DNA of 64,000 bases from an uncultured Acidimicrobiia bacterium (GTDB taxonomy: Bacteria; Actinomycetota; Acidimicrobiia; Spongiisociales; ZC4RG35): positions 64,765-128,764 of the forward strand of contig CAVYYV010000003.1 of assembly GCA_963772815.1 (NCBI GenBank). The letters run 5' to 3'. Positions within the stretch are counted from its first letter, which is position 1. Every line of letters starts with the position of its first letter. Below the pieces are notes generated by a model. The model searched no databases, had not been told where the DNA came from, and saw only the letters and a list, made by a program, of their open reading frames with translations. Positions 5,154-47,861 of the stretch are shown one piece after another. The position numbers were made by a program, and so were the translations under genes.

Positions 5154-5515
<362 letters not shown>

Positions 5516-5520
5516 AAAAC

Positions 5521-5550
5521 GTGGAGAGGCTCCTGAAGGAGCCTCTCCAC
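5521..5550 (+). terminator. perfect 13-bp stem / UGAA-loop hairpin just after rnpB, no U-tract
   Basis: GTGGAGAGGCTCC-TGAA-GGAGCCTCTCCAC. Confidence 0.4.
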
Positions 5551-5786
5551 CTGTAAGGGCGGACGGTTATATGGGAGCAGTCCCTCGTTCAAGACTGCAA
5601 CGATCAGCATCCCGTCTGAGCGGGCCAACCCTCACCCACGGTCGATGGGCAGCATGCAGGGACCTTCGGTTCGTCTTTAGAGTCCAAGGTCCCTATTTCG
5701 ACTCCTGCTGTCCTGTCAGCTTGACTCCTGCTGGCGTGCCAGCTTTGAATGCATGCAAGAAGACACGAGACAACCCGGAGGTCGAA

Positions 5787-6347
5787 ATGCGGACTCCAAA
5801 CTTCTATTGGCGTTCGATAACGTTACTCACGACTGTTTTCATGCTGGGGATGCTGCTCTCAGCGTGCAGCGGTCGAGAGGAACAGGTTGAGACGACGGCG
5901 GCTTCGAGTGTCAACGCGGATCTGACGGTTCAGGCAGACATAGTCCAGGGCTCGGCCAACATCCCCGAGGATCAGCGGGCCACTGCCGTCTGTGTGCTCA
6001 ACAGCCGATACCCGCGTAACGGTGAGGTCGTTTTTCGTGCCCGGATTACCGATCCTGTCACGGGTGAGGAACTCGACGATCAGGCCCTGGAGAGTGTGCA
6101 GGTGAAGCTGAGCGACGGCACGACGCTGGACATGAACTACGGAGGCCACCCTCACGACGACCCCGTCGACTTCTTCTGGGCCAAAGGTTGGGATATACCG
6201 GCCGACTACCCCACCGGCACCGTGGAATACGAGGTAGTCGCCACGGACCAGGACGGTCGCTCCGGGACCTTCTCCCAGTTCAACGTCCAGTCCTCACTGC
6301 TGACCGTGACCGACGAGGTTCTCGAGCCAATCGAGCAGAGCAGCTGA
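5787..6347 (+). CDS. lipoprotein, unknown function
   Basis: GGAGG RBS; signal peptide with lipobox LLSACSG; the ORF-track start 5445 overlaps rnpB and is rejected. Confidence 0.6.
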   Translation: MRTPNFYWRSITLLTTVFMLGMLLSACSGREEQVETTAASSVNADLTVQADIVQGSANIPEDQRATAVCVLNSRYPRNGEVVFRARITDPVTGEELDDQALESVQVKLSDGTTLDMNYGGHPHDDPVDFFWAKGWDIPADYPTGTVEYEVVATDQDGRSGTFSQFNVQSSLLTVTDEVLEPIEQSS

Positions 6348-8615: not shown

Positions 8616-9468
8616 GACTCCGGACGACGCTGGCCGCGGGAAGTTCGTGATCGGTCCCGAGGCTTTCCTGATCGTGGGCACGATCGCCACGATCGGAGCA
8701 GTGATCGCGTTCTGGGCGGGCAGCAATACCCAGATCTTCGGAGGCTTGGTTGCTCTGGCACTTCTCGCCACGGGATTGGGGCTGATCTGGTGGGCCCGAC
8801 GGGGCATGCCCGATGAGGTAGCGACTGAGGAGAGAGAGACAATCGAGTCTTCCGATGAGGAACGAGCGGAGGTGGTGGCCGAGATCAACTATGGACAGAC
8901 CTCGGTCACCCGCAGGCGGCTTCTTACTGTCTCGTTCTTGGCTTTCGCAGGTGGCGTAGGCGCGACGGCGCTCTCGATGCTGCGGTCTTTCGGTCCCAAT
9001 CCCAATCCGATCTTGGCCAAGACGGCCTGGACGAAGGGATCGAAGCTGGTCCGCGCCGACGGGACCCCGATCGGCGCTGACGATTTGCGGATCGATGGCG
9101 TTCTCACCGTTTACCCGGAAGGAAACGCCGGTGATGCGCGGGCTCAGACTCTTCTGATTCGGGTGAGGCCGAATCTGCTCGAGCTCCCCCAGGATCGCCA
9201 GGCGTGGACACCCAACGGTCTGGTTGCCTATTCCAAGATATGCACCCACGCCGCCTGCCCGCTCGGTCTGTATCAGAAGGAACAGCATCTCCTCCTGTGC
9301 CCCTGTCACCAGTCGACCTTCGATGTGCTCAGGGGTGCGCTGCCCACGTCTGGTCCGGCAACGCGAGCATTGCCTCAGCTGCCCCTGGAAGTCGACTCGG
9401 ACGGATTTTTGGTGGCGGGGGGCGACTACGACACTCCAGTCGGACCCGGGTACTGGAGCATGCCGTGA
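8608..9468 (+). CDS. qcrA: Rieske iron-sulfur subunit of the bc1 complex
   Basis: CTHAACPLG...CPCHQSTFD Rieske boxes; N-terminal TM segments. Confidence 0.9.
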   Translation: MAETPDDAGRGKFVIGPEAFLIVGTIATIGAVIAFWAGSNTQIFGGLVALALLATGLGLIWWARRGMPDEVATEERETIESSDEERAEVVAEINYGQTSVTRRRLLTVSFLAFAGGVGATALSMLRSFGPNPNPILAKTAWTKGSKLVRADGTPIGADDLRIDGVLTVYPEGNAGDARAQTLLIRVRPNLLELPQDRQAWTPNGLVAYSKICTHAACPLGLYQKEQHLLLCPCHQSTFDVLRGALPTSGPATRALPQLPLEVDSDGFLVAGGDYDTPVGPGYWSMP

Positions 9469-10796
9469 TCAGCGGGATCGGGCGCTGGATGGACTACCAG
9501 CTCGGTTTGGCCAGATTCGTCAAGAAGAATCTCCGCAAAGTCTTTCCCGACCACTGGTCCTTCGTCCTGGGCGAAGTCGCCCTCTACTCGTTCGTGATCC
9601 TGGTGCTTACCGGTACCTACCTGGCCTTCTTCTTCCGCGCCAGCGCGCAGCCGATCGCCTATGTAGGCAGCTACGGTCCCCTCAACCAGGTCGAGATGTC
9701 AGAGGCCTATGCCTCCGTTCTCAACATCAGTTTCGACGTCCGAGGGGGGCTATTCGTTCGCCAGGTCCATCACTGGGCGGCTCTGGTGTTCGTCGCAGCC
9801 ATCGCCCTCCACTTGTGCAGAGTCTTCTTTACGGGCGCCTATCGCCGGCCCCGACAACTCAACTGGGTAATCGGAGTGACACTCTTGTTCATTGCCATCT
9901 TCAGCGGGTTCACCGGATATTCGGTCGTGGACGATCTCCTTTCCGGCACCGGGCTCGTGATCGGTTACTCGGTGCTGCTCTCGATGCCCTTGGTGGGAGC
10001 CTGGATAGCCTTCCTCCTCTTCGGCGGCCCCGTTCCCAACCCGAGCCTCGTACCAAGGCTCTACTCAATCCACATCATGATTCTGCCTGGGCTGATTGCC
10101 GTGCTGCTGGCCCTTCACCTTGCGATCCTCTGGCGCCAGAAGCACACCAACTACCCGGGCCCTCAGCGAACCAACAAGACGATCGTCGGTACCCGTCTCT
10201 GGCCGGTCTATGCGACCAAGGCATTCGGCCTCTTCTTCGTGGTATTCGGAATACTCGCCATCCTCGGTGCCTTCGTCCAGATCAACCCGGTGTGGCTCTA
10301 CGGCCCCTTCGACCCCTCTTCGGTGACGGTAGGTTCACAGCCCGATTGGTACCTGGGATGGCTGGAAGGGGCTCTTAGGCTCGCGCCGGCCTGGGAGATG
10401 AAGGTCTTCGGTCATCTGGTCCCGAGCCCCTTCTTCGCCGGCGGGTTACTGGCATTGCTGATGCTGGCCGGCCTCTACGTGTGGCCCTTCCTCGATGCCC
10501 GCATCACCGGCGACCATGAAATCCACCACGTCCTGGACAGACCGCGCGATCGCCCGGTCCGCACCGCGGTAGGAACCTTCAGCATTACGTTCTTCGTGGT
10601 ACTCCTCATCGCAGGAAGCGACGACGTTCTAGCGGTGATCTTCGACGCCAGCATCGAAACCCTGCGGAGTGTGCTAACCGTGGTTGCGATCCTTCTTCCG
10701 ATAATCGCCGGCGTGACCGCCTATTTCGTCAGTCGATGGCTCTCCACCAGGTCGCCCTTACCCGTCTCCCAACAGAGCAACCCTTCCGCTAATTGA
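9465..10796 (+). CDS. qcrB: cytochrome b subunit of the bc1 complex
   Basis: Strong match to actinobacterial QcrB (VFPDHWSFVLGEVALYSF...RQVHHWAAL...); GTG start overlaps the qcrA stop by 4 nt (GTGA). Confidence 0.9.
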   Translation: MISGIGRWMDYQLGLARFVKKNLRKVFPDHWSFVLGEVALYSFVILVLTGTYLAFFFRASAQPIAYVGSYGPLNQVEMSEAYASVLNISFDVRGGLFVRQVHHWAALVFVAAIALHLCRVFFTGAYRRPRQLNWVIGVTLLFIAIFSGFTGYSVVDDLLSGTGLVIGYSVLLSMPLVGAWIAFLLFGGPVPNPSLVPRLYSIHIMILPGLIAVLLALHLAILWRQKHTNYPGPQRTNKTIVGTRLWPVYATKAFGLFFVVFGILAILGAFVQINPVWLYGPFDPSSVTVGSQPDWYLGWLEGALRLAPAWEMKVFGHLVPSPFFAGGLLALLMLAGLYVWPFLDARITGDHEIHHVLDRPRDRPVRTAVGTFSITFFVVLLIAGSDDVLAVIFDASIETLRSVLTVVAILLPIIAGVTAYFVSRWLSTRSPLPVSQQSNPSAN

Positions 10797-15307: not shown

Positions 15308-17070
15308 AAGGCTGTTGAACAACTCGGGTTAGGGGGCCCTGAGTGTTGCTGCGTCACTGGCCATGGGCCTGGTTTCGGGTTCTGTCGGCGTCACGGGTGA
15401 CGTGATCTGCGATTCCAGCGGTTCTTGTCGCAGGGTGAGCTAGATGGTTCAGGCGGGATTGCTGGATTGGGTCAGCCGGTGAGGGCCCAGGTGGTGCCGT
15501 CGTGGTTGAGTCCGAGGTTGACGAGCCGTCTCAGGTTGATGGCGGCGACGCGGAGGGCGAGTTGGCCTCGGTTGGCTTCGACTCCCCGGTATCGGAGACG
15601 CCGGTGGTGTTTGCCGACCAGCCAGGCGATGGACCGTTCCACCATGGGCCGGAACTGTCGGTAGTCGTCGGTGAACTCGCCGGCTGCCCATGCTCGACGG
15701 GCAGCGACCAGCTCGGCGTCGTGTGTCGAGATATTTAGAACCCGTCCGCCTTTGGCGGTGGTGCATCGGCTTTGGAGGGGACAGCCGAGGCAGTGTTTTC
15801 CGAAACTGGCGGAGCCTTTGGCGGCGATGTGGACTGTGTGTCCTCCCGGGCAGGTGACGGTGCGGTTGTCGTGGTCGACACAGAAGTCGTCTCGGGTGAG
15901 CCCTCCTTCGATTCTGGGACGGGCCAGCGGGATGGGTTTGATCGCCAGGTCGTGTCCCGCCTCCCGGATCCGGGCTCTTGTTTCTCCCGACCCGTAGGCG
16001 GAGTCGGCCAGCACCTGAAGACCCGGTTCCTCACCTTCCAGCAGCTCCAATCCGGTGGGTCCGTCGCCGGCGTTGGCTGGGGTGAGCTGAGAGGCGGTGA
16101 CGATCCCTGTTTCAGGTTCGACCGCGACATGCGCCTTGTAGCCGTCCCGGTATTGGCTGGTCGACTTGTGCATATGACGGGCCTCAGGGTCGACCGTGGA
16201 GATCACCCCGTCCGCGACGGTGCCTTCGGTGATCCGCCAGGTGCCCTCAGTGTCGCCGGGTTCGACATCCTGGCCAGAAACCAACGCCAACAATCCCACC
16301 GCATCAGCCTGATCCTCGGTGAGATCGACTCCTTCCAACGCTGTGATCAGGGCCAGAGCATCGTTGACCAGGGCAGACACCAGAGCGGCCTTCGCTTCGG
16401 GGTCGTCCCAAGCGCACACCGGCTTGCCTGAAGTGTCGTAATCATGCGCCGACACCACCACTGCGGCGGCTTCGGGGATGAGACGACGCACCCGGCGGAT
16501 CTGAGATACCAGTTGGGTGACCGTGTCCTGGGTGGCCACCGCATCATCCAAAAGCGTCGAATCCAACGCCCTGCGACGTCTCCCCGCCAACACACCCGTC
16601 GCCTCCACCACCTCGGTGACCGTCTCACGGATCCGATCGGGACGCTCCGATCCGGCCAGCCGCTGCCGCCAATAGGTGAACACCGTGTAATGAGGACCCT
16701 CATCGTCGAGAGCCAGCCCACAGGCCACCTTCCAACGGATATCACAGCGGAGAGCATCAGCCGCCTCCCGATCCGACAGGCCCTCCAACTCCTTGAGGAT
16801 CATCGCCGAGGCCATCACATCCACCGGAATCGAGGGACGTCCCCGACCCGACGGAAACAAGTCCGAGAACATCACATCGGGAAACAGCTCAGCCCGATGG
16901 TCGGCCAAAAACGCATAGACCGACCCCTCCGAGACCAGCTGCCGACACAACGCCGCCGCATCCAACAACATCCGCTCCGGTCGAGAAGAACCCTGCATAC
17001 GCTACATTCTCCCAAACCACGCTCGCGATCGCGAGCACCAAATCAGCGATTAAATCAACAGCCTTCTAGG
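15304..17070 (-). mobile_element. IS1182-family insertion sequence (~1.77 kb) with 15-bp perfect terminal inverted repeats
   Basis: IRL CTAGAAGGCTGTTGA at 15304-15318; IRR TCAACAGCCTTCTAG at 17056-17070; a single intact 508-aa transposase ORF inside. Confidence 0.8.
15472..16998 (-). CDS. IS1182-family (IS5 superfamily) DDE transposase
   Basis: N-terminal DUF772-like region (LKELEGLSDREAADALRCDIRWKVACGL) and C-terminal DDE region (CPGGHTV...GKHCLGCPLQSRCTTAKGGRVLNISTHDAEL...RSIAWL...RYRGVEANRGQLALRVAAINLRRL). Confidence 0.9.
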   Translation of the reverse strand: MQGSSRPERMLLDAAALCRQLVSEGSVYAFLADHRAELFPDVMFSDLFPSGRGRPSIPVDVMASAMILKELEGLSDREAADALRCDIRWKVACGLALDDEGPHYTVFTYWRQRLAGSERPDRIRETVTEVVEATGVLAGRRRRALDSTLLDDAVATQDTVTQLVSQIRRVRRLIPEAAAVVVSAHDYDTSGKPVCAWDDPEAKAALVSALVNDALALITALEGVDLTEDQADAVGLLALVSGQDVEPGDTEGTWRITEGTVADGVISTVDPEARHMHKSTSQYRDGYKAHVAVEPETGIVTASQLTPANAGDGPTGLELLEGEEPGLQVLADSAYGSGETRARIREAGHDLAIKPIPLARPRIEGGLTRDDFCVDHDNRTVTCPGGHTVHIAAKGSASFGKHCLGCPLQSRCTTAKGGRVLNISTHDAELVAARRAWAAGEFTDDYRQFRPMVERSIAWLVGKHHRRLRYRGVEANRGQLALRVAAINLRRLVNLGLNHDGTTWALTG

Positions 17071-17253
17071 AGTCTGCTGGATAATGCCGTTGCTCGGATT
17101 GGCGGCCAGGCGCGCCAGCCGCAAGGCCGAGGTTTCGCCACTCCTTGTGCCGGAATGGCGGGGCCGAGAACGCAGCGGGTGTCGATGCACGGTCGTCAAG
17201 ATGGGTGAGATGCATTGTTCAAGGGGCTCCAAGTAGGGAGATAGCCTGGTCTC

Positions 17254-17645
17254 GTGCCCTACGTGGATCCGATCGAGGAACAGATCCAGGAGGCGATCGC
17301 CGGGAATTCGACGATCTTCCCGGAGCGGGGCATCCCCTGCGCATCAAGGACACACGGCCCGGCTGGTGGGCGCGGCGCAAGGTTGCGGAACTGAAGGTGC
17401 AAGACGATCTCGAAGAGCTGGCCCGTAAGGTCCAGCGCCTCGATGACGGTCTTTGCCTCCTGCCCGACGAAGAGGCGGTTAAACGGCAGGTCAAAGCCAT
17501 CAACCGCCGGATCGCGGCCATCAATTCCCGCCTGGCCTCAGACGACCCGTTCGAGCCACTCGACTCCGAGCGTCTCGTCCGCACCTGGGGCAAGATGTAC
17601 CGGGCCCGCCCTTCCCCACTCCGTAGGCGACGAAGGAGCAAATGA
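17254..17645 (+). CDS. DUF1992 (DnaJ-C28-like) protein with an apparent frameshift at GGG 17302-17304
   Basis: VPYVDPIEEQIQEAIAG in one frame, then EFDDLPGAGHPLRIKD...PFEPLDSERL in the next; inserting one G joins them. Confidence 0.55.
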
Positions 17646-17712
17646 AGACGGGGCAAGGGGGTGCTGTACCTCCGGTACAGTGAGGGGCCATCCCGCTGGA
17701 GCCTGAAGAGCG

Positions 17713-18492
17713 ATGACCGACTCACCACGCCTGCTCGTCCTGGCCGACGACGGCACACCCCCTTCCACCACCGCCTGGATCTGGCTGACCCAGCAACCGT
17801 GGAAGGCCTGGCGGATCGCGGTGATGACCGCCGACGAGACGGCGATCGAATGGGGCCGGCCGGCCGAGGTCGTCGAATGGACTCCCGACTGGGAACGGCT
17901 GCCTGAGGCCATTCCGGGTGCAGCGATGAGCTTCCTCCACGTCAACGCCGACCCCCGCGCCATGCTCGCCGAGCGGGAGGATGCCGACCTGATCGTGGTC
18001 GGGATGCGGGCGGAGAGCCACCTGGAAGCGGTCGTCTCGGGGAGCACCACCGAGTGGCTGCTGCATCACCCGCCTGCCCCCCTGGTGGTGGTGAGCCGGT
18101 CCGGGGCGGTTCGCAACGTGTCGGTATGTGTGGATGGCTCCACCCACGCACTGGCTGCCCTCGACAGCTTTCTGGCCTTGCCGCTTTCGGTCGACACCAA
18201 GGTGACGTTGCTCTCGATCGCAGACGGGCGCGTGAACGCCAAAGCGGCGGTGGAGCAAGCTCGAGCACGACTGAAGGACGAGCCAGTCACAGTGCGCGCC
18301 ACCATCGCCCTGGGCCGACCCACTCCGGCCATACTCGACCACATCGCCACCCACACCCCCGACCTGGTGGTCATGGGCACGAGGGGACTGACCGGATGGC
18401 AGAGGCTGCGGCTGGGCTCGACCGCCTCGGCCGTGGTCCGATCTGCCAAGACGACCTCCCTGGTGGCCTCCGAGCCGACCGTCAACGGTTGA
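17713..18492 (+). CDS. tandem-domain universal stress protein
   Basis: Two UspA-like halves (...DLIVVGMRAES..., ...DLVVMGTRGLTGWQRLRLGSTASAVV). Confidence 0.8.
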   Translation: MTDSPRLLVLADDGTPPSTTAWIWLTQQPWKAWRIAVMTADETAIEWGRPAEVVEWTPDWERLPEAIPGAAMSFLHVNADPRAMLAEREDADLIVVGMRAESHLEAVVSGSTTEWLLHHPPAPLVVVSRSGAVRNVSVCVDGSTHALAALDSFLALPLSVDTKVTLLSIADGRVNAKAAVEQARARLKDEPVTVRATIALGRPTPAILDHIATHTPDLVVMGTRGLTGWQRLRLGSTASAVVRSAKTTSLVASEPTVNG

Positions 18493-18502
18493 GAGTGTCC
18501 GC

Positions 18503-19499
18503 GTGACAACCACCGTGATCTGGGCGACGCCGGCACTTGCGGCCGCCAACGCCCAGAGCGGGTTTGCCGATTTCACCGTGCCCGGGTGGGCCTGGGCAGC
18601 GTTCATCGCCGGCATAAGCGGCCTGCTCGTGTTCGACTTGCTAGTCCTCCATCGCAGGCCTCACGTGATCAGCCTGCGCGAGGCGGCCATCGAATCCAGC
18701 GTGTGGATCAGCATCGGGCTGGGATTCGCCGTCGTGATGCTGGTGTGGCACGGGGGGGCAGCGGCGGGTGAGTACCTGGCGGGGTACCTGGTCGAGGAGA
18801 GTCTCTCGGTCGACAACGTGTTCGTGTGGGCAGTGATTCTGGGCTATTTCGCGGTGCCACGCCGAATACCAGTTCCGGGTCCTGTTCTGGGGCATCTTCG
18901 GGGCCCTGATACTACGTGCCGCCTTCATCTTCGCCGGAGTGGCGCTGATCCAAAACTTCGATTGGATCCTCTACGTGTTCGGAGGATTCCTCATCTTCAC
19001 CGCCATCCGGATCGCCCGCCATGAAGACGTGGAGGTGCATCCCGAGACCAACCCGGTTCTGAAGGTGATGCGGCGAATAATCCCGTCGACCACCGACTAT
19101 GACGGCCAGAAGCTGTTCACGACTCGGAGTGGACGGCTTCTCGCCACCCCACTGTTCGCAGTCCTGATCCTGATCGAAACGACCGACGTACTTTTCGCGG
19201 TCGACTCGATACCGGCCGTGCTGGCCGTCAGCCGACATCCTTTCATCGTCTTCACCTCCAACGCGTTCGCCATCATGGGACTGAGGGCCCTCTACTTCCT
19301 CCTGGCCGGGATGGCGGGGCGATTCCGCTATCTCAACCTGGGGATCGGAGTCATCCTCGGTTTCGTCGGCTTGAAGATGATCGCCACCGAGTGGTACCAC
19401 CTCCCCACCTGGGCCAGCCTGGTGGTCATAGTGGTGGTGCTGATAGTCACGGTGGTGGCCTCCCTCTACGCCGAGCGAAAGGAAGCTCCTTCAGGCTGA
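18503..19499 (+). CDS. TerC-family integral membrane protein with an apparent frameshift near 18858-18864
   Basis: EESLSVDNVFVWAVILGYFAVP (frame 1) continues as EYQFRVLFWGIFGALILRAAFIFAGVALIQNFDWILYVFGGFL (frame 2); both are canonical TerC motifs. Confidence 0.75.
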
Positions 19500-19537
19500 G
19501 GGTTGAGTTGGCGCGGGGCCGGTGACCCACCCACGCC

Positions 19538-19591
19538 GGAGGTCCGGGAGCGCATTGGCGTACCTCCTCCCGATCCAAGGATCGGACCTCC
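19538..19591 (+). terminator. compound hairpin downstream of the TerC gene
   Basis: GGAGGTCCG ... CGATCCAAGGATCG GACCTCC nested inverted repeats. Confidence 0.3.
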
Positions 19592-19649
19592 TATCCGCCG
19601 TTCTTGCGCTCTCGGACTCCCCCGCCAACCCCGTTAGTGTCAGCACCTG

Positions 19650-21032
19650 ATGCCCGCCACCGCCTCCTCCCGGCTGATAGTTGCCGCCAACCGACTGCCG
19701 GTTAGGTGGGATGAGGAGACGCAGTCCTGGATCACCAGCCCCGGCGGCCTGGTATCGGCTCTGGCCCCGGTCCTGCAGGAACGGGGCGGCGTGTGGGTGG
19801 GGTGGAACGGCACCGCTGGTGGAAGAGGCGAGCGATTCGAAGCCGCGGGCATCGTCAACCAGCCGGTGACGCTGGAACCCGAGGAGATCGAGAACCACTA
19901 CGACGGTTTCTGCAACGGCACCATATGGCCCCTCTACCACGATGCCATCCGCCCACCCGAGTACCATCGCCACTGGTGGCGTCCCCATCGACAGGTCAAC
20001 CAGCGTTTCGCCGACACCGTGGCCGACGTGTTCGAGCCCAATGACCTGATATGGGTGCACGATTACCAGCTCCAGCTCGTGCCGGGAATGGTCCGTGACT
20101 TGATACCCGGGGCGAGAATCGGCTTCTTCCTGCACATCCCTTTTCCTCCGCCGGAGATCTTCGAGCGCCTCCCCTGGCGTCACTCCATCGTCGATGGGTT
20201 GCTGGGGGCCGACTACATCGGCTTCCAGACCAGGCGCGCAGCCCTCAACTTCGCCGCCGCGGCGCGGGAATTCTCGGGGGCCAAAGGGCCGGCCGGTGCC
20301 CTGCGGCTCGACGGGCGTCACATCCGGGCTGAGGCGGTGCCGATATCGATCGAGACCGAGCGGTATGCGGCAGCAGCCGCCCGGCCGGAAGCCCAGCGGG
20401 TGGCAGCCGAGCTCCGGACCGACCTGGGTGATCCCGAGACCATCATCCTGGGTGTGGACCGACTCGACTACACGAAGGGAATCGACTTGCGTCTCCGGGC
20501 CATCGAGACCCTATTCGACGACCATCCCGAGCTGCATGGACGGGCCTCGTTCGTCCAGGTGGCCGTTCCAAGCCGGGAGGACGTCGACGAGTATCAGGAG
20601 ATCCGGCGGCGTGTGGAAGAGCTGGTGGGCAGGGTCAACGGACGCTTCGGCCGAGCCGGTTGGCTGCCGGTCCATTACATGTTCCGCTCGCTCCCCTTCG
20701 AAGAGCTGATCGGGGCCTACGTTGCCGCCGACGTCATGTTGGTCACGCCCCTACGAGACGGGATGAACCTCGTCGCCAAGGAGTACGTGGCCACCCGGCT
20801 GAACGACTCGGGCGTGCTGATCCTGAGCGAATTCGCCGGAGCCGCCGAGCGTCTCGACGATGCCCTCCTGGTCAACCCTTATCACCTCGATGCCCTGGCG
20901 GAGACGATTGCCCGGGCGGTGGACATGAGCGCCCAGGAACAACAGGACAGGATGCGGCGCCTCCGGCGCGTCGTGCAGCGCTGGAACGTGCACGACTGGG
21001 CCCACCACAACCTCGAGGCCATCGCAGGATGA
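19650..21032 (+). CDS. otsA: alpha,alpha-trehalose-phosphate synthase (GT20)
   Basis: [10 protein letters not shown]...[11 protein letters not shown]...VWVGW...[11 protein letters not shown]...GFFLHIPFP... family hallmarks. Confidence 0.9.
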
Positions 21033-39343: not shown

Positions 39344-40507
39344 ATGGGCGAACATACGTTCGGGTGGGGAGAGGACCGGGAACCGGCTAACGGCCCCGAG
39401 CTGATGGAAGCGATCCGGGCCGCCACCTCCGAGTTGGACCGGTCGAGCCTGGACCGCCTGGAACGCATCGCCGCCCTGGATACCTCGGAGGGGTTCCGTT
39501 ACGACGGATACACGTCGGTTTCTGCGTTTCTAGCTCACCGGTGTGGGATGGGAGTGCGAGAAGCCAACCGCAGCGTATTCCTGGCTCGAGCGTTGGAACA
39601 GATGGCCTATTCGGTCAAACTGGTCCGCACCGGCGATTTGTCCCTATCTCAGTTCGAGATCCTGGCTCATGCCCAATCTCAGCATCCCCAAGGGTTCGCC
39701 ACCGACGAAACCACCCTGGCCCAATCGGTAGTCGACCTGTCCTGGACAGACACCAAAAGGGCCGTCACCTACTGGTGTTGCCTGCACGAAGAACCCCAAG
39801 ACCTTTCGGACCCCGAACCGTCCCGGATACATCTCTCCAAAACATTCGGGGCTCGAGGGCGCCTGGACGGGGACCTGACACCCGAAGACCACAACCTCCT
39901 AGAAACCGCCCTCGAGCCGCTCATCTCAGAGATCGTCAACACCACCCCCAAAGACCAGTTGCCGACCCGCTCAATACTCAGAGCCATGGCCCTAACCGAA
40001 CTGATCCGCCGCCACCTCGCTTCTAACCAGTCTCCGTCCGATCACGGCAACCGTCCCCAAGTCAACGTCATCATCCCCTGGGACACCCTCATCGGTAACA
40101 ACGATCAGCCCGCCGAATTCACCGACGGGACCCTCATATCAGCCGCCGACGCCCGCCGACTCGCCTGCGACGCTTCGGTGTGTCGCCTCCTGATAGGTCC
40201 CAACTCTGAGATCCTCGACCTGGGTAGGAGCCGACGCACCGTCATCCGCCGCCCAATGGCGGGCCCTGGTCATCCGAGACCGCCACTGCCGCTTCCCCGG
40301 CTGCCGCCGGCCCGCTTCCTGGTGCGACGCCCACCACACCCTGTCATGGGACCAACTCGGGAACACCGACCTGTGCGACATGTGCCTCCTCTGCCGAAAC
40401 CACCACACCCTGATTCACCGAGACGGCTGGACCATCACCAACCAAGGCAACGGCCAACTCGTCTTCACCCGACCCGACACAACCACCCTCCCCAACGCAC
40501 CCCCATA
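39344..40507 (+). CDS. DUF222 + HNH endonuclease (13E12-repeat family) with an apparent frameshift near 40244
   Basis: DUF222 region in frame 1; HNH motif WRALVIRDRHCRFPGCRRPASWCDAHHTLSWDQLGNTDLCDMCLLCRNHHTLIHRDGW in frame 3 ending at TAG 40507. Confidence 0.7.
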
Positions 40508-40627
40508 GCAGAGGATTACGCCCCCAAGGCGCGACGAACTCCCTCCTGATTCGAACGAACCAATCGGTTCAGATTGCCGTTGAACCTCGCTCACCGTGCT
40601 CTACGGTGCCGGACCGTGGCTACCGAC

Positions 40628-40966
40628 ATGCTGAAGAGTCTTACCGGTGGATTTCGGCGTCCGTCGATCCGGGAACGACTCAGGATCGATGACTCGTTCG
40701 ACGACGGCCGGGTCGAGCGTCGCCCACCGCCCGCGCCTCGGCACCGGCCCGAGGCAGCCCCCGTGCTGGCCTTCTTCATCGAGTGCGCCTGTCCGATCGG
40801 ATTACGAGAGGCGTCGGTGGCAGGCGGTGGCCTGACCTCGCCCGCCGAGTTCCTGGACACCTATCACCTGACACACATCGAGTGTCAGACGTGTCATCGC
40901 TACTACCGCCTGGTGGGATACATCGACGAAAGCGGCGAGCAACACGGCGTCGAGAAGCACCGCTGA
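40628..40966 (+). CDS. small Cys-containing hypothetical protein
   Basis: ...FFIECACPIGL...HIECQTCHRYYRLVGY; possible metal-binding; start uncertain. Confidence 0.3.
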   Translation: MLKSLTGGFRRPSIRERLRIDDSFDDGRVERRPPPAPRHRPEAAPVLAFFIECACPIGLREASVAGGGLTSPAEFLDTYHLTHIECQTCHRYYRLVGYIDESGEQHGVEKHR

Positions 40967-40996
40967 CCCGTCTCACGGCTTTCTAGGCTGAGATCG

Positions 40997-41548
40997 ATGG
41001 CCTGGATCGAGACCATTCCCGAGGACAAATGGGAGGGAGAGCTGCGCGAGTTATACCCCAAGGTGTCAGATCTGGCTCAGGATCGGGTGGACAACATCAT
41101 GCAGATCCACTCACTCAATCATCGGGCGCTGGCCGCCCATCACAACCTCTACACGTCGGCCATGTCCGGGACGCCGGGCCTGCGCAAGGTTGATCGGGAG
41201 ATGATCGCGCTGGTGGTGAGCGGCATCAACGAATGCCACTACTGAATCGTCCACCATCGGCGCGGTCTGCGCCGGCTGCTCAAGAACGATGAGTTGCTCG
41301 ACGCCATCGAGAGCGACTGGCAGACGGCTGAGCTCGACCCCCGAAGGGATGCCATGCTCGCCTACGCCGAGAAGCTGACCGTCAACCCCGCCCGAGTGAC
41401 TCAAGACGACATCGAGGGCCTCCGGGCGGTCGGATTCTCCGACCGGGACATCCTCGACATCTGCGAGGTAGCCGCCTACTACGCCTACGTCAACCGCATC
41501 GCCGACGGACTCGGAGTGAAGTTGGAGACCTGGCTATCGCCTGATTGA
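40997..41548 (+). CDS. AhpD/carboxymuconolactone-decarboxylase-family (peroxidase-related) protein with in-frame TGA (41243-41245) at the second Cys of CxxC(x3)H; probable selenoprotein (CxxU)
   Basis: ...LVVSGINECHY[TGA]IVHHRRGLRRL...: family consensus N.CHYC..SH; reading continues in-frame to TGA... through LSPD (84 more residues of conserved CMD-family sequence). Confidence 0.7.
41258..41274 (+). promoter_or_regulatory. bacterial SECIS-like hairpin (apical stem-loop) downstream of the in-frame UGA
   Basis: CGGCGC-GGUCU-GCGCCG; loop GGUCU occupies nt +22 to +26 from the U of UGA, identical in spacing and loop to E. coli fdhF (UGA CACGGCCCAUCGGUUGCA GGUCU GCACC) and with a similar CCAUCGG lower stem. 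Confidence 0.65.
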
Positions 41549-41556
41549 CTCCTACG

Positions 41557-42069
41557 TCAACGACGAGACAGGACTCTGTAGGCGAGACCCACCCCGGCAC
41601 CGAAGGCCAGATGTGCGGAGAGATCCTTCCACAGCGTTTCGATGTCGTACTCCCAGATCGGCTTGTAGAGGCCGGCCGGCGCCAGGGTCGCATACGAGGT
41701 GAGCCATGCCCCCGCCCCGGTCAATAGACCAGTCAGCACTCTCTGTCGCTGCATGGAGCCGTTGACGACCCCATGCAGCGCACCCCAACCCAGCCCGGTT
41801 CCCCAGTGAACGACGTTGTTCATTGGGCCCGCCGTAGCCGGGTCGAGTTTGACATCAAACAGACCCTCAAGCACCCGCTTGCCCACTTGCGCAGGCGCCG
41901 GTGCGTTGTCGTACCCCTCGAGGCCGGCCGAGAACTCCCACTCGGCGAAAGTCTGGTCGCCGCCACCCGACCGATAGCGCGTGTACCAGACCAGGTCCAT
42001 GGCTACGACCCCGGCCACTCCGGCCAGGGCCCCCTTGAAGATTGTCCCTAGTGGGGTCCCATTCCTCAT
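41557..42069 (-). CDS. DUF1440-like hypothetical membrane protein
   Basis: MRNGTPLGTIFKGALAGVAGVVAMD...; family assignment tentative. Confidence 0.45.
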   Translation of the reverse strand: MRNGTPLGTIFKGALAGVAGVVAMDLVWYTRYRSGGGDQTFAEWEFSAGLEGYDNAPAPAQVGKRVLEGLFDVKLDPATAGPMNNVVHWGTGLGWGALHGVVNGSMQRQRVLTGLLTGAGAWLTSYATLAPAGLYKPIWEYDIETLWKDLSAHLAFGAGVGLAYRVLSRR

Positions 42070-42177
42070 CGGCCCAACCCTACCGCTATAGGTGTGCCAA
42101 CAGATTCGGGCCGCCCGGGGCCAAGCCGGACCATCGTCGTGCACGCGGCACGGTTCAGGTCATAGTCTCCGTCAGAC

Positions 42178-42693
42178 ATGGCTCCGTACTTCTTCCACAC
42201 CCAATGGATCCTCGAGGCGCCGATGCGGGAGGTCTTCGACGCTCTGACGAGCCCCGACGACCTTCTGTCATGGTGGCCGGCCATCCGTAGAGCCCGTCTC
42301 ATGGACCGAGGGGACGAGCGAGGCGTCGGTGCCCGAGCTTCCTACTCGATCCAGAGCCCTCTCCTCTACCGCGTCCACTTCGAGCTGACCTCGACTGACC
42401 TCGATCCCCCTCGACGGATCCGAGGATTAGCCACCGGCGACCTGGTCGGAACGAGTGACTCGATCCTCGAAGAAGGGGGCGCTGCGACCACAGTCCACTT
42501 TCACTGGTATGTGTCAACCACGAAACGCTGGATGAATCTGATGACGCCCGTTGCCAGGCCGCTCTTCATCTGGGCCCACGACCGCGTCATGAAACAAGGT
42601 TGCGCGGCTCTGGCCCGACACCTCGACATCCGAGCCGTATCTGCAACGACGAACCTCATCGACCGACCGATGCCATCCCCCGGCCCCGACTGA
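42178..42693 (+). CDS. SRPBCC (polyketide cyclase/dehydrase-like) family protein
   Basis: LEAPMREVFDALTSPDDLLSWWP... signature. Confidence 0.6.
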   Translation: MAPYFFHTQWILEAPMREVFDALTSPDDLLSWWPAIRRARLMDRGDERGVGARASYSIQSPLLYRVHFELTSTDLDPPRRIRGLATGDLVGTSDSILEEGGAATTVHFHWYVSTTKRWMNLMTPVARPLFIWAHDRVMKQGCAALARHLDIRAVSATTNLIDRPMPSPGPD

Positions 42694-42742
42694 CCAGGGA
42701 CCGATCTCGCCAGGCCGCTCTGAGGCAGATACTCTCGGGCTG

Positions 42743-44014
42743 GTGTCGGCTGGGCGAGACTCCGATCTCTGGAAGCGCTTCATAGAACTGGGGTCGAGTC
42801 CATCCGATACAGACCAGCAGAAGGCGTACAAGTCGACACACGTCTTGATGTCGGCCGTGACTGCAGCTGTCGTGTTGCTGTGGTCGGTCGTCTACCTGGT
42901 TCTCGGTCTTGGCCTTTCGGCCGCCATTCCGCTCGTCTACGCCTCGCTCACCCTCCTCGGGCTAGTCGTGGTCGCCCGGACCAAGCGAATCAGGCTGTTC
43001 CGCGCTTCACAGATGACAATGTGGCTCACGTTCCCCTTCCTGCTCCAGTGGAGCGTTGGCGGCTTCGTGAACGGCAGCGGCGTCGGCATATGGGCGGTAG
43101 GGGCGCCACTCTTGGCTTCCCTGATCGGAGCCGTGCCCGGCCCGTGGTTCGTGGGCTTCATCGGCCTGTCGATCGTGTCCGGCCTGATAGACAGCTTGGT
43201 GGCGGTCTCAGCTCCGCCGATTCCACCAGGAGTGGTCACCACCATGTTCGTCCTCAACTTCCTCGGCGTGGCATTCGTGATCTTCGTGTCCCTGCGCTAC
43301 TTCGTCCGCGAGCGTGAGCGCACCCTCCACTCACTCGAATTAGAGCAGGAGAAATCGGAGAGTTTGCTTCTCAACATCCTGCCCGAGGAGGTGGCAACCA
43401 GGCTGAAGGCGGGTGAAGCCGTGATCGCCGACAGAATCGAAGACGTGACGATCCTGTTCGCCGACCTGGTCGGGTCCACACCGTTGTCAGAGCGCCTCAG
43501 CCCCGATGAGCTCGTCCGGTTCCTGAACGAGATATTCACGCCCTTCGACGACCTCGCCGACCGGCTAGGCCTGGAGAAGATCAAGATCATCGGTGATGCC
43601 TACATGGTGGTGGGCGGGTTGCCCACGCCGAGGCCGGACCACGCCGAGGTTGTGGCGGACATGGCCCTGGCTATGCGTGAGGAGCTCAGGAAGCATCCAC
43701 TCGATGGATTCGGCCCCCTCCAGATGCGTTACGGGATCCACACGGGAACCGTGGTTGCCGGGGTGATCGGCAAACGAAAGTTCAGCTACGACCTCTATGG
43801 GGACGCGGTCAACACCGCTTCCCGGATGGAGTCCCAGGGCATCCCCGACGAAATCCAGGTGAGCGAAGAGGTGTATCTGGAGCTTCGGGACGACTACGTG
43901 CTCGAACCGCGGGGGCCGGTCGATATCAAGGGCAAGGGCATCATGAACACCTACCTCTTGAAGGAGACGCGGCATCCTGTCTCGCAGGAAAGTGAACGCC
44001 TCGGCGGGCATTAA
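42743..44014 (+). CDS. membrane-anchored class III adenylate/guanylate cyclase
   Basis: Six N-terminal TM helices; catalytic domain ILFADLVGSTPLSE...KIKIIGDAYMVVGGLP...GIHTGTVVAGVIG...YDLYGDAVNTASRMES. Confidence 0.85.
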   Translation: MSAGRDSDLWKRFIELGSSPSDTDQQKAYKSTHVLMSAVTAAVVLLWSVVYLVLGLGLSAAIPLVYASLTLLGLVVVARTKRIRLFRASQMTMWLTFPFLLQWSVGGFVNGSGVGIWAVGAPLLASLIGAVPGPWFVGFIGLSIVSGLIDSLVAVSAPPIPPGVVTTMFVLNFLGVAFVIFVSLRYFVRERERTLHSLELEQEKSESLLLNILPEEVATRLKAGEAVIADRIEDVTILFADLVGSTPLSERLSPDELVRFLNEIFTPFDDLADRLGLEKIKIIGDAYMVVGGLPTPRPDHAEVVADMALAMREELRKHPLDGFGPLQMRYGIHTGTVVAGVIGKRKFSYDLYGDAVNTASRMESQGIPDEIQVSEEVYLELRDDYVLEPRGPVDIKGKGIMNTYLLKETRHPVSQESERLGGH

Positions 44015-44423
44015 CCACTCGAAACGCCAGGGGACGAGAACATTCCTAAAGAGGAACGACAGCGTTTCGACCGAGAGGTGGACGACCTCATGTGACGGCC
44101 GGGCAAGGCCATCCACTCGTCGGCCGGTAAGAGTAGAGGGCAGTCCAGATCGCCCGCGGCTTCCTTCGGGGACTGTACGGGCGCAGGCCCTATTGCCTGG
44201 TCAGAGGCCTGGGCCACCCCAGAGCCGGTCCGAGAGCCGCATAAAGAGCCTGTTATGCGACCCGAGACGCATAGACGTGTCCGCTCACGAGAGACTCCGA
44301 GCTCCTCGTCGGGAGTGCGGGTGGGCCAAGCGGATTGACCATCGCCAGCTCCGACGTACCCCTTGACGGCCAGTGACGAAAAAGCCTCGGCCGCCCTACG
44401 AATGGCATTCCGGCGATCCTCGC

Positions 44424-45635
44424 TCAGTCGCCAGGCCTATGCACCCAAACCCCGACCACGGCCGGTTGCATGACCTCGGCAACGACCGCCACCGACTCGG
44501 CGGTCAACTGCCCCACATCCAAACCGTCCTGGAGGCGGTCAGCGAAGTCATCGACTACCCGCTGGGCGTCGTATTGGGAGCGGTTGAAGCGCCGATCCAC
44601 CCACCACAACACCCGACGCCGCACCGGATTGAACAGTGCTGCCACCACCAGGGTCGACCCGGCCACGAACAACTGAGGCTGCTTCCCCATGATCTTGGTG
44701 GGTAGCCACACCGCTCCCACAACGTAAACGAGACCGAGGCCCGCCACCACCAGGGCGTAGCCCACCGTACGGGAGATGATCCGGTCGATTTCAAACAGTC
44801 GGTAGCGGGTGATCGCCACCGTGATAGCGATAGGAATGAACGCCAGGGAGACCGACATGAGAAAGCCGAAAATGCCGCCTTCGGTCCCGGTGACGGCGTT
44901 ATCGAAGAGATTTAGGGCGTACATGACGACGAACACGACGAACGAGAAGGTCACCCACCTGATCTGGGCACGAATCGTCTGTGACGACCGGCGATAGCGC
45001 ACCACCACCGCCGGTATGGCCCCAACGATGAGAGAGAAAAGAGCCAGGCCGAAGATCCACTGGAGCCATCCTCCGTCAGCCCACCACTCTGTGGGGATGA
45101 ACCCGAACGGGTTGTGCGTAGTCCAGTTCTGGTCTGGAAAATCGGATAGTCCGACCTCATTCAGAAACAGATAGACGAGGAGCAGTTCGACACTCAACAC
45201 GGCAGCCACCCAACCAGCCCATGCCCAGCGACGGGTGAGGAAATGCCCAGTCGGGAACACATACAGCAGCAGCAGTACCAACGCAGAACCGATGAAGAAA
45301 CCAGAGTTGACCCCGGCCAGGATCGCTACATCCCACAGAGAAGGTGGCTCGGGATGGTTGGCCACCAGATTGAGTCCAATCGCCTCCAGCAGGAATGCTG
45401 GGCCGACCAGGAGAAACAGCCAGGAGATAGGGTTACCTGGGTTCCGTGTGGCGATGATGACTCCGAGAACCGCAAAGCCGATTGGGACCAGAGCGAATGA
45501 GAGGTTGAAGAGGCCGACCTGCTCGCTTTCGGACACGACGACGAAGATCGTCAGGGCGAGAGTCAGCGTCGTCGTCGCCCACGGCAGGACAGTCCCGAAC
45601 CGGGACCATCCTGTCGTGCCGCGTGGCGCCGTCAT
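44424..45635 (-). CDS. polytopic membrane protein (sensor-kinase-like N-terminal membrane domain, no kinase module)
   Basis: ~10 TM helices then ...RRRVLWWVDRRFNRSQYDAQRVVDDFADRLQ..., a segment commonly found before HK domains. Confidence 0.5.
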   Translation of the reverse strand: MTAPRGTTGWSRFGTVLPWATTTLTLALTIFVVVSESEQVGLFNLSFALVPIGFAVLGVIIATRNPGNPISWLFLLVGPAFLLEAIGLNLVANHPEPPSLWDVAILAGVNSGFFIGSALVLLLLYVFPTGHFLTRRWAWAGWVAAVLSVELLLVYLFLNEVGLSDFPDQNWTTHNPFGFIPTEWWADGGWLQWIFGLALFSLIVGAIPAVVVRYRRSSQTIRAQIRWVTFSFVVFVVMYALNLFDNAVTGTEGGIFGFLMSVSLAFIPIAITVAITRYRLFEIDRIISRTVGYALVVAGLGLVYVVGAVWLPTKIMGKQPQLFVAGSTLVVAALFNPVRRRVLWWVDRRFNRSQYDAQRVVDDFADRLQDGLDVGQLTAESVAVVAEVMQPAVVGVWVHRPGD

Positions 45636-45798
45636 GTCACAGAACCTAGACCTTCACCGGTTACGAGATCGTTACGTGTGGCGAGACCGACCTCCGGTCA
45701 ACCAGATGCGGGCGGATTTACCCGACACCTAACAAGGTCACCCCGACTCCAGACGCAAGCGCGCGAAACCCCTGGTCCGGGCATCCCTGCGACAGCCT

Positions 45799-45860
45799 GT
45801 GACCTGGGCCTTTGTCGTGGGCGTTGACGGATTCGAACCGCCGACCTCTTCCTGTAAGGG
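45799..45860 (-). repeat. 62-nt direct repeat of the 3' half of tRNA-Val plus 18 nt of 3' flank (att-like, island distal end)
   Basis: Identical except for 1 indel to 47770-47832: TGACCTGGGCCTTTGTCGTGGGCGTTGACGGATTCGAACCGCCGACCTCTTCCT(T)GTAAGGGA. Confidence 0.75.
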
Positions 45861-46051
45861 ACTATTGGCCCGATTCGGCGACCTCGGGAAACGGGCGAAA
45901 AGGGGCCTCTGATACATGGGGAAATGATCTCGAACTGTCTCGGGCCATCTCGGGCCGTTCGGACCCCTCTGGTGTGGGCGCCGTGTGGCTGTGTGGTTGC
46001 AATAGGCCCTGAGAGCCGATTCCGTCCGAGTGCGTCTACTAGCGTGACCGC

Positions 46052-47416
46052 ATGGCTCAGGACCAGAAGTTGCAGAGGGCACGCCTAATACCGGTCTCTG
46101 GGATCGGTTCAGTACAAGAAGCCGAGCAGCGAGCCACCTCCGCTCTCCTGGCCGTACTCACCGTCGTGCGAGATCTCTCCGACGAACTGCTTGGGCCTCT
46201 GGGTGCCTCCCGGGCCGCCAAAGCAACGGTGGATGCTTACTCCGAGGTCATCATGAACCTCGACGGGAGGAACATCCGGCCTGACGGTTTGATCCGGGTC
46301 ACGTATGGGAAATCGTCTTGGTCCACGCTGGTAGAGGTGAAGACGGGGGACAACACGTTGGAAGCGGACCAGATCAACGCCTACTGGGACCTCGCCCGGG
46401 GTAACGGCATCGACCACATCCTCACCATCTCGAACGAGATCGCCCCCAACCCTGACGCACACCCCACTGACGGGTTGAAGGTGAGATCCAACTCACGGGT
46501 GGGGGTGTCCCACCTGTCCTGGACGGCGATCCTCTCAGCCGCCATCCGTATCCAGCAGCACACCGGCGTTCAGGACCCCGAGCAGGCATGGATCCTGGGT
46601 GAGCTGATCCGTTACCTCCAGCACCCGAAGTCAGGGGCGCTTGATTTTGAGGACATGGGACCCAACTGGGTGTCAGTCAGAGAGGCGGCTCACACCGGGG
46701 ACATCACCAAGCACTTCGACGGAGTCGACGACGTGTGTGCCCGATGGGATCAACTCATCCGCTTCGCAGCGCTTCACCTCGCCTCCGAGATCGGAGAGGA
46801 CGTCACCATGGTGCTCAAGCGAGGGCACCAGGACCCGAAAAAACGGATGGCAGCCCTGGTGGATGACCTCTGCTCCGACGGTGTGATGTCCGGTGTCCTC
46901 CGTATCCCCAAGACGGCCGGGGACCTGGAGATCTGGGCAGACCTCCGCTCCCGGCAAATCTCAGCTGCCATGGAGGTGGGCGCTCCGGAAGACAAGGGTG
47001 CTGTCGGGCGTGTCTCGTGGCTGGCCCGCCAACTGTTAGACGGCCCAGGAGACTTGATCATCGAGTCCTATCCAAAGAACGCCCGCACACCGACAATGGC
47101 CAGTCTGGAAGAGGTCAGGGACGACCGTCGAACCGTGCTGGATGAGCAGAAACGAGACCCCTACCGCTTCCGATTGCTGCTACGTCGGGATATGGGGATG
47201 GGGCGCAAGACGGGCCGCAAGAACCCGGGGTTCATCACGTCCGTGATGGCGTTGATCGAGACCTTCTACGGCGAGGTCGTGCAGTACGTTCAGCCGTGGC
47301 AACCACCAGCACCCCAGATGAAACGCTCCAGCCAAGCACCGGCGGACGACGAGGCTGATGACGAAGTCACTGAGGAGGAAAGCTGGACAGGATCTGAATC
47401 GACCCGGGCGACATAA
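46052..47416 (+). CDS. 454-aa hypothetical protein with an N-terminal PD-(D/E)xK-like nuclease motif and an acidic C-terminal tail; the only gene in the tRNA-Val mini-island
   Basis: ...IRPDGLIRVTYGKSSWSTLVEVKTGDN... (D...E.K spacing typical of the restriction-endonuclease fold); no recognisable family otherwise. Confidence 0.45.
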   Translation: MAQDQKLQRARLIPVSGIGSVQEAEQRATSALLAVLTVVRDLSDELLGPLGASRAAKATVDAYSEVIMNLDGRNIRPDGLIRVTYGKSSWSTLVEVKTGDNTLEADQINAYWDLARGNGIDHILTISNEIAPNPDAHPTDGLKVRSNSRVGVSHLSWTAILSAAIRIQQHTGVQDPEQAWILGELIRYLQHPKSGALDFEDMGPNWVSVREAAHTGDITKHFDGVDDVCARWDQLIRFAALHLASEIGEDVTMVLKRGHQDPKKRMAALVDDLCSDGVMSGVLRIPKTAGDLEIWADLRSRQISAAMEVGAPEDKGAVGRVSWLARQLLDGPGDLIIESYPKNARTPTMASLEEVRDDRRTVLDEQKRDPYRFRLLLRRDMGMGRKTGRKNPGFITSVMALIETFYGEVVQYVQPWQPPAPQMKRSSQAPADDEADDEVTEEESWTGSESTRAT

Positions 47417-47769
47417 CCGACCGAGTGGATTCTAACCCCCAGTGTGCCGGGTCGTAGTTTTGAAGGTGGTGGCTTCGGCTTCGTGGACGTGAGGCGACCC
47501 GCCGGGCGTCCTCCAGGTAATCCGATGCCCTATTGGCGTGTTGCCTGCATCGAAGTATCCCATGCCCGAACGGGCGGCCGACTCCCTACTGCGCCTCCCT
47601 GCTCCCATCCCCACCAGGTGGAGGAGTTCGTCATCGAGATGGCCAGGCCCGGGTGGCTATCGCCAGGGGGTTCGGGTGACCGTACTCGGTGCTACGCCTC
47701 TGACCCAGCTGTGTGGCCCTGGTGTGGCTGGCCCCACGGACAAGGCCCAGTCCGGAGCAGAAAACGCTC

Positions 47770-47832
47770 TGACCTGGGCCTTTGTCGTGGGCGTTGACGG
47801 ATTCGAACCGCCGACCTCTTCCTTGTAAGGGA
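47770..47832 (-). repeat. direct repeat copy overlapping the intact tRNA-Val (att-like, island proximal end)
   Basis: See the 45799-45860 repeat. Confidence 0.75.
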
Positions 47833-47861
47833 AGCGCTCTAGCCAACTGAGCTAAACGCCC
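47788..47861 (-). tRNA. tRNA-Val (anticodon TAC)
   Basis: rc: GGGCGTT-TA-GCTC-AGTTGGCTA-GAGC-G-CTTCC-CTTACAA-GGAAG-AGGTC-GGCGG-TTCGAAT-CCGTC-AACGCCC-A cloverleaf, 74 nt, CCA not encoded. Confidence 0.85.

Follow-up and report, generated by a model that had tools for sequence, protein, structure and literature searches.

A single-gene island at the tRNA-Val gene

We have analysed a 64-kb stretch of the genome of an uncultured Acidimicrobiia bacterium (contig CAVYYV010000003.1, positions 64,765 to 128,764; hereafter the window, whose own numbering is used below), in which a short island bounded by direct repeats lies at a tRNA-Val gene and carries one gene (the cargo gene) for a predicted nuclease. 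ARAGORN identified one tRNA in the whole window, a tRNA-Val(TAC) at 47787-47861 on the minus strand, and the Rfam tRNA model scored 74 bits at 47788-47861. When the 3' 45 nucleotides (nt) of this gene were searched against the window only two copies were retrieved, the second with E = 1e-16. A repeat finder and self-BLAST aligned the two copies over 57 nt at 98% identity, with a 1-nt deletion in the distal copy and 7 further identical nt, and placed their bounds at 45797/45800-45861 and 47767/47770-47832. By direct reading, the repeat comprises the tRNA from the anticodon stem to the discriminator A73 (47788-47832) and the trailer behind it (47770-47787). The block of identity begins around tRNA position 29, in the anticodon stem, and the deletion in the distal copy has removed one A from the anticodon loop (CTTACAA to CTTACA). 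The 3' end of the intact tRNA-Val points into the island. The original prediction had described this pair, 45 nt of tRNA plus 18 nt of flank repeated with one 1-nt indel about 1.9 kb away, as the footprint of site-specific integration into a tRNA 3' end; ARAGORN, Rfam, BLAST and direct reading all bear out the description, and the geometry is canonical. Chance similarity was rejected as an explanation of the repeat, and so was an origin from a larger tandem duplication, since the repeat is not part of any bigger duplicated segment.

Between the repeats, the periodicity of GC at third codon positions (GC3) singled out one open reading frame (ORF) of coding type, 46052-47416, whose product of 454 amino acids (aa) has the RPDGLIRV...VEVKTGD motif and the acidic tail that had been attributed to it. 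In the small overlapping ORFs GC does not vary with codon position and Pfam gave no match, and no match to a sigma-70-type promoter was found in the leader (45862-46051). A tyrosine-integrase profile hidden Markov model (HMM) built from related loci detected no integrase within the repeats or elsewhere in the 64-kb window. In the two non-coding segments of the island (45862-46051 and 47417-47706), profile HMM, tblastx and sensitive blastn searches detected no remnant of an integrase or of any other pseudogene, so that the statement of the original prediction that no integrase lies between the repeats holds.

At the tRNA side of the island a long hairpin pairs the 3' strand of the tRNA acceptor stem and the trailer with element DNA. 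The 101-nt fold has an energy of -44.7 kcal/mol (z = -2.1 against shuffled sequences), and the loop and the 3' arm are conserved in the full-size relative described below (L085). The hairpin may be a terminator or processing signal of the tRNA, or an arm site of the integrase. The features of the island are collected in Table 1.

Table 1. Features of the island at tRNA-Val, in window coordinates.
Feature	Position	Strand	Remarks
Distal attachment (att) repeat	45800-45861	-	Putatively displaced 3' part of tRNA-Val (44 nt) and 18-nt trailer
Non-coding leader, 190 nt, 5' of the cargo gene	45862-46051	+	No detectable homology to related loci
Cargo gene, 454 aa, predicted PD-(D/E)xK nuclease domain	46052-47416	+	
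Non-coding spacer, 290 nt	47417-47706	.	Position of ~8.8 kb in L085
Element-side att arm running into the trailer	47707-47769	-	Similarity to the end of L085
Long hairpin	47733-47791	-	26-nt arms, 7-nt loop
Proximal att repeat	47770-47832	-	18-nt trailer and 3' 45 nt of the intact tRNA-Val, from the anticodon stem
Intact tRNA-Val(TAC)	47788-47861	-	ARAGORN, Rfam; CCA not encoded, discriminator A followed by CGA

A full-size relative and probable intermediate stages of decay

A much larger relative of the island was found at the same att site on a metagenomic contig (L085; ENA ERZ25039549). Its cargo homologue, 88% identical in aa and 82% in nt to the window gene, lies in the same orientation and is preceded by a type I restriction-modification (R-M) system and an Mrr nuclease; it is followed by hypothetical ORFs and, about 8 kb downstream, by HTH_17 and Prim-Pol/PriCT/AAA_25 domains and a tyrosine integrase. 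The last 84 nt of L085, directly after the integrase, are 80% identical to window 47707-47788 and end in the same tRNA-Val trailer. Compared with L085, the window has thus retained the cargo gene and the att arm, and the approximately 8.8 kb between them are missing. The same cargo gene and att arm are found here together with an integrase, and L085 gives direct support to one of the options that had been considered from the outset, namely that the integrase of the window island was deleted.

The synonymous divergence (dS) between the window gene and its homologue in L086 (87% aa identity) is 1.0, and L085 is similarly distant. Apart from the att arm of L085, the homology among the three loci does not extend beyond the ORF and some 12 nt upstream of its ATG. 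Because a dS of ~1 would make unconstrained DNA unrecognisable, the conserved arm must be under constraint. Chromosomal seven-transmembrane (7TM) orthologues in the sample of L085 have nt identities of 82-85%, close to the value for the cargo gene (82%), and the comparison would be compatible with descent from an element that a common ancestor already had. On L085 itself, positions 1836-7825 and 16238-20201 hold the type I R-M genes (M, S and R), with the Mrr-family nuclease between S and R, and the HTH_17 and Prim-Pol/PriCT/AAA_25 genes. Both the cargo homologue and the integrase of this contig look frameshifted, possibly through errors of long-read assembly.

Smaller islands lie between these two extremes. 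In L002/L051 the same tRNA-Val, beside an orthologous sigma-70 gene, bounds a 3.6-kb island with 67-nt repeats, which at tRNA-Val of L002 begin just 5' of the anticodon stem. This island contains a DUF2510/SHOCT gene, a cargo homologue and a 117-aa integrase fragment. In L009, what comes directly after the cargo homologue is a pseudogene of the C-terminal part of an integrase, interrupted by a stop codon, with a tRNA-Pro behind it. Together with L085, these intermediates add to the case for a deleted integrase. Larger tRNA-bounded islands in which a cargo homologue accompanies an intact integrase were found at tRNA-Gly (L039) and tRNA-Glu (L076), and other tRNA-bounded islands with a homologue at tRNA-Phe (L053) and tRNA-Met (L015). 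A separate peculiarity of the last locus is a pair of tRNA-like repeats of ~130 nt at a spacing of 1.8 kb, which follow closely downstream of the homologue (L003:7382-7513 and 9169-9298, the same locus as L015). They have an anticodon-loop-like CTCATAA and receive no ARAGORN call. They are related to a tRNA-Met located 9 kb upstream and are separated from it by a phage capsid gene and an integrase.

The cargo protein and its TerD-fused relatives

The cargo protein had no match at E <= 1 in Pfam, NCBIfam, PADLOC (PADLOC-DB v2.0.0) or PHROGs, and a sequence-profile search of the PDB with the whole family gave none either. Its N-terminal domain has the alpha/beta core fold of PD-(D/E)xK nucleases. 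This is followed by a helical linker, an alpha/beta C-terminal half that resembles YktB/DUF1054 and YbjN, and a disordered acidic tail (residues 427-454). No substitution of D78, E95, K97, Q107 or Y111 occurs among 21 close and 27 distant members of the family (the latter at 30-50% identity), and E25 is nearly invariant. The resulting signature E...D...ExK...QxxxY (E25, D78, E95-x-K97, Q107xxxY111) is that of RecB/Cas4-type nucleases. Fold and invariant residues together substantiate the PD-(D/E)xK assignment that had been made from a motif. There are only two cysteines in the protein; it therefore has no Cas4-type Fe-S cluster, for which four are needed. The ratio of non-synonymous to synonymous divergence (dN/dS) of the cargo gene is 0.08, which indicates strong purifying selection. 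From the preserved active-site residues, the domain is predicted to be an active nuclease. Foldseek searches of PDB and BFVD returned weak matches to the nuclease domain and no global match; in this respect the combination of domains is unprecedented. The YktB/YbjN-like half is probably a regulatory or partner-binding module that would gate the nuclease.

Many longer relatives have the whole nuclease module fused to a TerD domain, which is mostly N-terminal (P0150-P0213) and in one case C-terminal (P0141), and it is because of these fusions that members of the family appear in databases as 'stress response protein' or 'TerD family protein'. The window protein itself has no TerD domain (PF02342) by Pfam. 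TerD-fused forms are found as solo genes, outside ter operons, on large linear plasmids of Streptomyces and Rhodococcus (L092:6242-8284, L093:6260-8299), where they are surrounded by RES toxin, ThiF/MPN system and polymorphic-toxin genes. The fused gene of L093 has a RES NAD+ phosphorylase toxin pair on one side and a ThiF/MPN (E1/JAB-like) cluster on the other. A full-text literature search for TerD-nuclease defence fusions gave no match. Anantharaman, Iyer and Aravind reportedly predicted in 2012 a link of TerD with restriction-endonuclease-fold DNases, of which this family may be one.

Distribution and neighbourhoods of the cargo family

The family is large, with >2,700 matches in a database clustered at 90% and 1,711 clusters at 50% identity, and its distribution is patchy. 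The gene was found in 125 of ~185,000 species genomes, mostly of Acidimicrobiia, Nitriliruptoria and various Actinomycetes, with stray occurrences in metagenome-assembled genomes of Burkholderiales, Myxococcota and Dehalococcoidia. We have rejected the possibility of a housekeeping gene on the basis of this scarcity, of the lack of any conserved neighbour and of an off-site copy in one relative, whose cargo gene (L006) is on another contig than its tRNA-Val/sigma-70 locus (L088). No conserved operon partner was found across the family loci. Apart from the cargo gene itself, the clusters seen most often in its surroundings are those of generic paralogue families, integrases and DUF222/HNH genes, and the 125 nearest neighbours belong to 145 Pfam families, none of which appears more than 3 times. 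Integrases were recognised near the cargo gene in 7 loci by BLAST clustering and, within 10 kb and counting fragments, in about 15 loci by profile.

There is also a spatial relation to tRNA genes, whose density within 2 kb of the cargo gene is about double that at 2-10 kb; when a tRNA lies within the 2 kb, its 3' end faces the cargo gene in 12/13 cases (p = 0.0017). Direct repeats that tightly bracket only the cargo gene were found in 8/64 loci against 14/1,188 control intervals, an excess of about tenfold. These brackets (L001, L037, L040, L054, L058, L059, L069 and L072) consist of direct repeats of 22-132 nt and span 1.5-2.7 kb. Their nature is diverse: to the att-type bracket of the window we can add a palindromic repeat (L040), paralogous flanking genes (L033, L058 and probably L037 and L054) and short unexplained repeats (L001, L059, L069 and L072). 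The short repeats have no common core, and a uniform insertion signature was rejected. We read these patterns as those of a gene that inhabits hotspots of integration and recombination and tends to outlast the elements that deliver it, and not as evidence of self-mobility. L069 has a peculiar layout: perfect 22-nt repeats (7799-7820 and 9816-9837) enclose the cargo homologue only, the second of them inside the 5' part of an 857-aa ORF, and immediately beyond this bracket there is a tyrosine integrase that is intact (6512-7690, minus strand).

Unoccupied sites and flanking synteny

The tRNA-Val locus could be compared with four related genomes (L088-L091) whose sigma-70 proteins are 79-83% identical in aa to that of the window. 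All have a single tRNA-Val(TAC), without a second 3' copy, a cargo homologue or an integrase, and they keep the synteny of sigma-70, WhiB, G6PD and PGI, colinear with the right side of the window. When window 40550-47861 is compared with them, synteny breaks exactly at tRNA-Val. To its left, only a DUF222 gene is common to the window and L089, and the breakpoint could not be refined. The tRNA-Val of L088-L091 encodes CCA; both window copies instead run into the common trailer. In the empty-site comparison foreseen in the original prediction, these relatives have neither repeat nor gene, and the 3' flank of their tRNA-Val is otherwise rearranged. What the alignments indicate is a variable hotspot of non-universal occupancy rather than a strain-level empty site. 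When metagenome and viral contigs were scanned for exact patterns of the trailer-tRNA junction and of the conserved att arm, 0 matches were obtained. The 7TM orthologues of the left flank (L094, L095) were discarded as empty-site evidence, since they stand in other contexts, their homology ends at 45697 and they have no tRNA-Val, which makes them uninformative.

Other differences in the flanks can be described briefly. Between tRNA-Val and sigma-70, L088-L091 contain an additional gene, for an AI-2E transporter or a beta-helix protein, which is absent from the window, and an adenylate cyclase of the window stands where L089 has a cNMP-binding protein. The DUF222/HNH-type gene of the window (39344-40549) is of the family of the mycobacterial '13E12 repeat'. 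Its L089 orthologue (51% aa) matches it in two frames, with the switch near 40242, and the window copy may be frameshifted; DUF222 genes were seen near the cargo homologue in 6 loci (cluster c3). The left-flank protein at 44424-45635 is 100% identical in one public assembly (P0390) and 86% identical and longer in another (P0393). In the assembly with P0393 the island protein and sigma-70 are 100% identical and called shorter, which may be due to assembly errors or to a close strain.

Origin of the island and role of its cargo

These observations taken together suggest that 45800-47832 is probably the decayed remnant of an L085-type integrative element at tRNA-Val, which has lost its integrase and kept its cargo. 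A tyrosine integrase would have acted on the anticodon-stem/loop region of tRNA-Val(TAC) and inserted the element there. Along with the trailer and the hairpin, this element would have brought a replacement for the 3' half of the tRNA, while the original 3' half was pushed some 2 kb away to become the present distal repeat. The integrase, replication and excision genes would later have been lost, in an order that we can only infer, and the island would now probably be fixed in place. The single cargo gene, for a stand-alone enzyme, would have survived through a benefit to the host. Its nuclease would be held inactive until a trigger such as phage infection or a TerD-type Ca2+/stress signal arrives, and would then cut nucleic acid.

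Several observations weigh against this interpretation or restrict it. The composition of the island gives no hint of foreign origin: GC is ~0.62 throughout and the GC3 of the cargo gene is 0.75 (z = 0.03), so that the contrast in GC and codon positions between island and flanks that had been contemplated is absent; the insertion must therefore be old or have come from a close relative. The left end of L085 is beyond its contig, and only one att arm can be compared. In L002 the cargo gene is oppositely oriented relative to tRNA-Val, and the islands at this site are therefore not all of one lineage. Everything to the left of tRNA-Val differs in L088-L091, and no strain-level empty site was found among them. 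With respect to the function, ordinary genes predominate among the immediate neighbours in 60+ loci, and few of the 125 nearest ones are defence-like by raw count (SspA/DndA 3, NERD+UvrD 2, a single STAND and a single DUF4007). No cargo homologue was found in phage genomes. With such a sparsely defence-like neighbourhood and no PADLOC match, a defence gene is a plausible reading of the sequence rather than an established one.

The absence of an integrase from the window could also be understood if the island were a still-functional mini-element, similar to the cis-mobilisable elements (CIMEs) discussed below, excised and transferred in trans by an integrase and excisionase of the L085 type from another part of the genome. 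The 98% identity of the two repeats would fit such an element, and so would an att arm and hairpin that have stayed similar to the integrase-proximal arm of L085 despite a dS of ~1, although the arm may have been conserved only for its use as the 3' hairpin of the tRNA. The tenfold excess of gene-only brackets, and in particular the intact integrase just outside the 22-nt bracket of L069, point in the same direction; the brackets are nevertheless a mixed collection in which paralogous flanking genes account for some and a palindromic repeat for one. The missing A of the distal repeat falls in the anticodon loop, the likely crossover region, and would impair recombination. With no integrase in 64 kb of sequence besides, we regard a functional mini-element as improbable. 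Still further from our expectations, and very improbable, is a self-mobilising nuclease cassette, akin to a homing endonuclease, that makes the direct repeats by its own insertion. Its appeal comes from the restriction of the homology among the window, L085 and L086 to the ORF, from the occurrence of the cargo gene alone between direct repeats at different non-tRNA sites and from its very heterogeneous neighbours. At such synonymous divergence, however, neutral flanks diverge anyway, and the ORF-limited homology is uninformative. The repeats share neither sequence nor length nor structure, no terminal inverted repeats or conserved ends were found, and in the loci mentioned above the gene is in the company of integrases or integrase fragments. 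The repeat of the window has precisely the anticodon-to-3'-end geometry that is typical of tyrosine integrases, and we know of no PD-(D/E)xK nuclease that makes target duplications of 20-130 nt. A decayed remnant is therefore the origin that we favour, and the original prediction was right in its essentials.

As for the role of the cargo, a defence or stress nuclease is a reading towards which we lean with considerable reserve, at somewhat less than even chances. The non-defence version, in which the protein is a DNA-repair or stress nuclease tied to Ter-type (TerD) metal or Ca2+ stress, or a factor of element maintenance, that travels on mobile elements, has a smaller though appreciable chance of being correct. 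TerD fusions are common and give members their stress-related names, there is no PADLOC match, most neighbours are not defence genes, and purifying selection together with full amelioration suggests a long residence in the host. Against it stand the absence of a TerD domain from the window protein and a distribution that is patchy and due to horizontal transfer, as is more often the case for conflict genes. Besides, the 2012 study of Anantharaman et al., the gist of which is quoted in PMC10542128, reportedly tied the ter system itself to resistance against phages and to predicted DNA-processing modules of restriction type, so the two roles overlap. A Ter-type role overlaps with the decayed-remnant model and does not exclude it. 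A bolder proposal, which we consider doubtful and put forward tentatively, is that the cargo protein founds an undescribed and widespread family of single-gene defence nucleases of Actinomycetota, with a RecB-like PD-(D/E)xK domain gated by the YktB/YbjN-like sensor (by TerD in the fused paralogues), and spread as the last-surviving or trans-mobilisable cargo of tRNA-targeting elements. If this were true, the enigmatic TerD domain would gain a concrete and testable effector partner.

Decayed islets at tRNA genes are common and the island is in itself ordinary; the point of interest is the cargo gene, which selection would have preserved while the rest disappeared. With L085 at one end, the window at the other and L002 and L009 in between, the series would provide a clean natural example of an integrative element eroding to its useful cargo. 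The family of the cargo is large and unannotated, has an intact predicted nuclease active site and is repeatedly fused to TerD, which makes it a reasonable lead: it could contribute a new effector of defence or stress responses in Actinobacteria and offer a way into TerD signalling. We know of no mechanistic explanation for what TerD does in resistance to tellurite and phages.

Comparison with known systems

Among the tRNA-integrated islands of tyrosine recombinases there is a sublocation class at the anticodon loop, which the classification of Williams from 2002 reportedly contains. As in such islands, the tRNA of the window is intact, the repeat runs from the anticodon stem past the 3' end, the island lies on the 3' side of the tRNA, and a full-size homologue (L085) occupies the same site with the integrase next to the tRNA. 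The window island differs from complete elements of this kind by its lack of an integrase, an excisionase, replication or transfer genes and any compositional signal, with one gene in 2 kb. Having no integrase, it is a remnant or derivative and not a complete integrative element.

CIMEs are att-flanked, integrase-less derivatives of integrative and conjugative elements that can be mobilised in cis, and have been described for ICESt1/ICESt3 of Streptococcus thermophilus. The island resembles them, and other decayed islets, in being flanked by att sites of the attL/attR type, in having no recombination module of its own and in deriving from a larger integrative element. It differs from them in that no resident helper is known for it and that its distal att site has a deletion in the probable crossover region.

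By fold and motifs, the cargo protein belongs to the PD-(D/E)xK superfamily, outside its curated families and outside the defence systems of PADLOC. From single-protein PD-(D/E)xK defence effectors, such as Can2/Card1, the Cap4 nuclease domain, type IV and type IIS restriction endonucleases and Cas4/RecB-type nucleases, it is set apart by the absence of CARF and SAVED domains and of a Cas4-type Fe-S cluster, by its YktB/YbjN-like C-terminal half and by the lack of a match to any PADLOC model. From Ter-linked nucleases with a restriction-endonuclease fold, the window protein differs by the absence of a TerD domain and of ter genes nearby. It is nevertheless these nucleases that its family recalls, by the PD-(D/E)xK site, by the fusion of the cargo module to TerD in many actinobacterial proteins and by the neighbourhoods of conflict genes in which the fused forms are found on plasmids.

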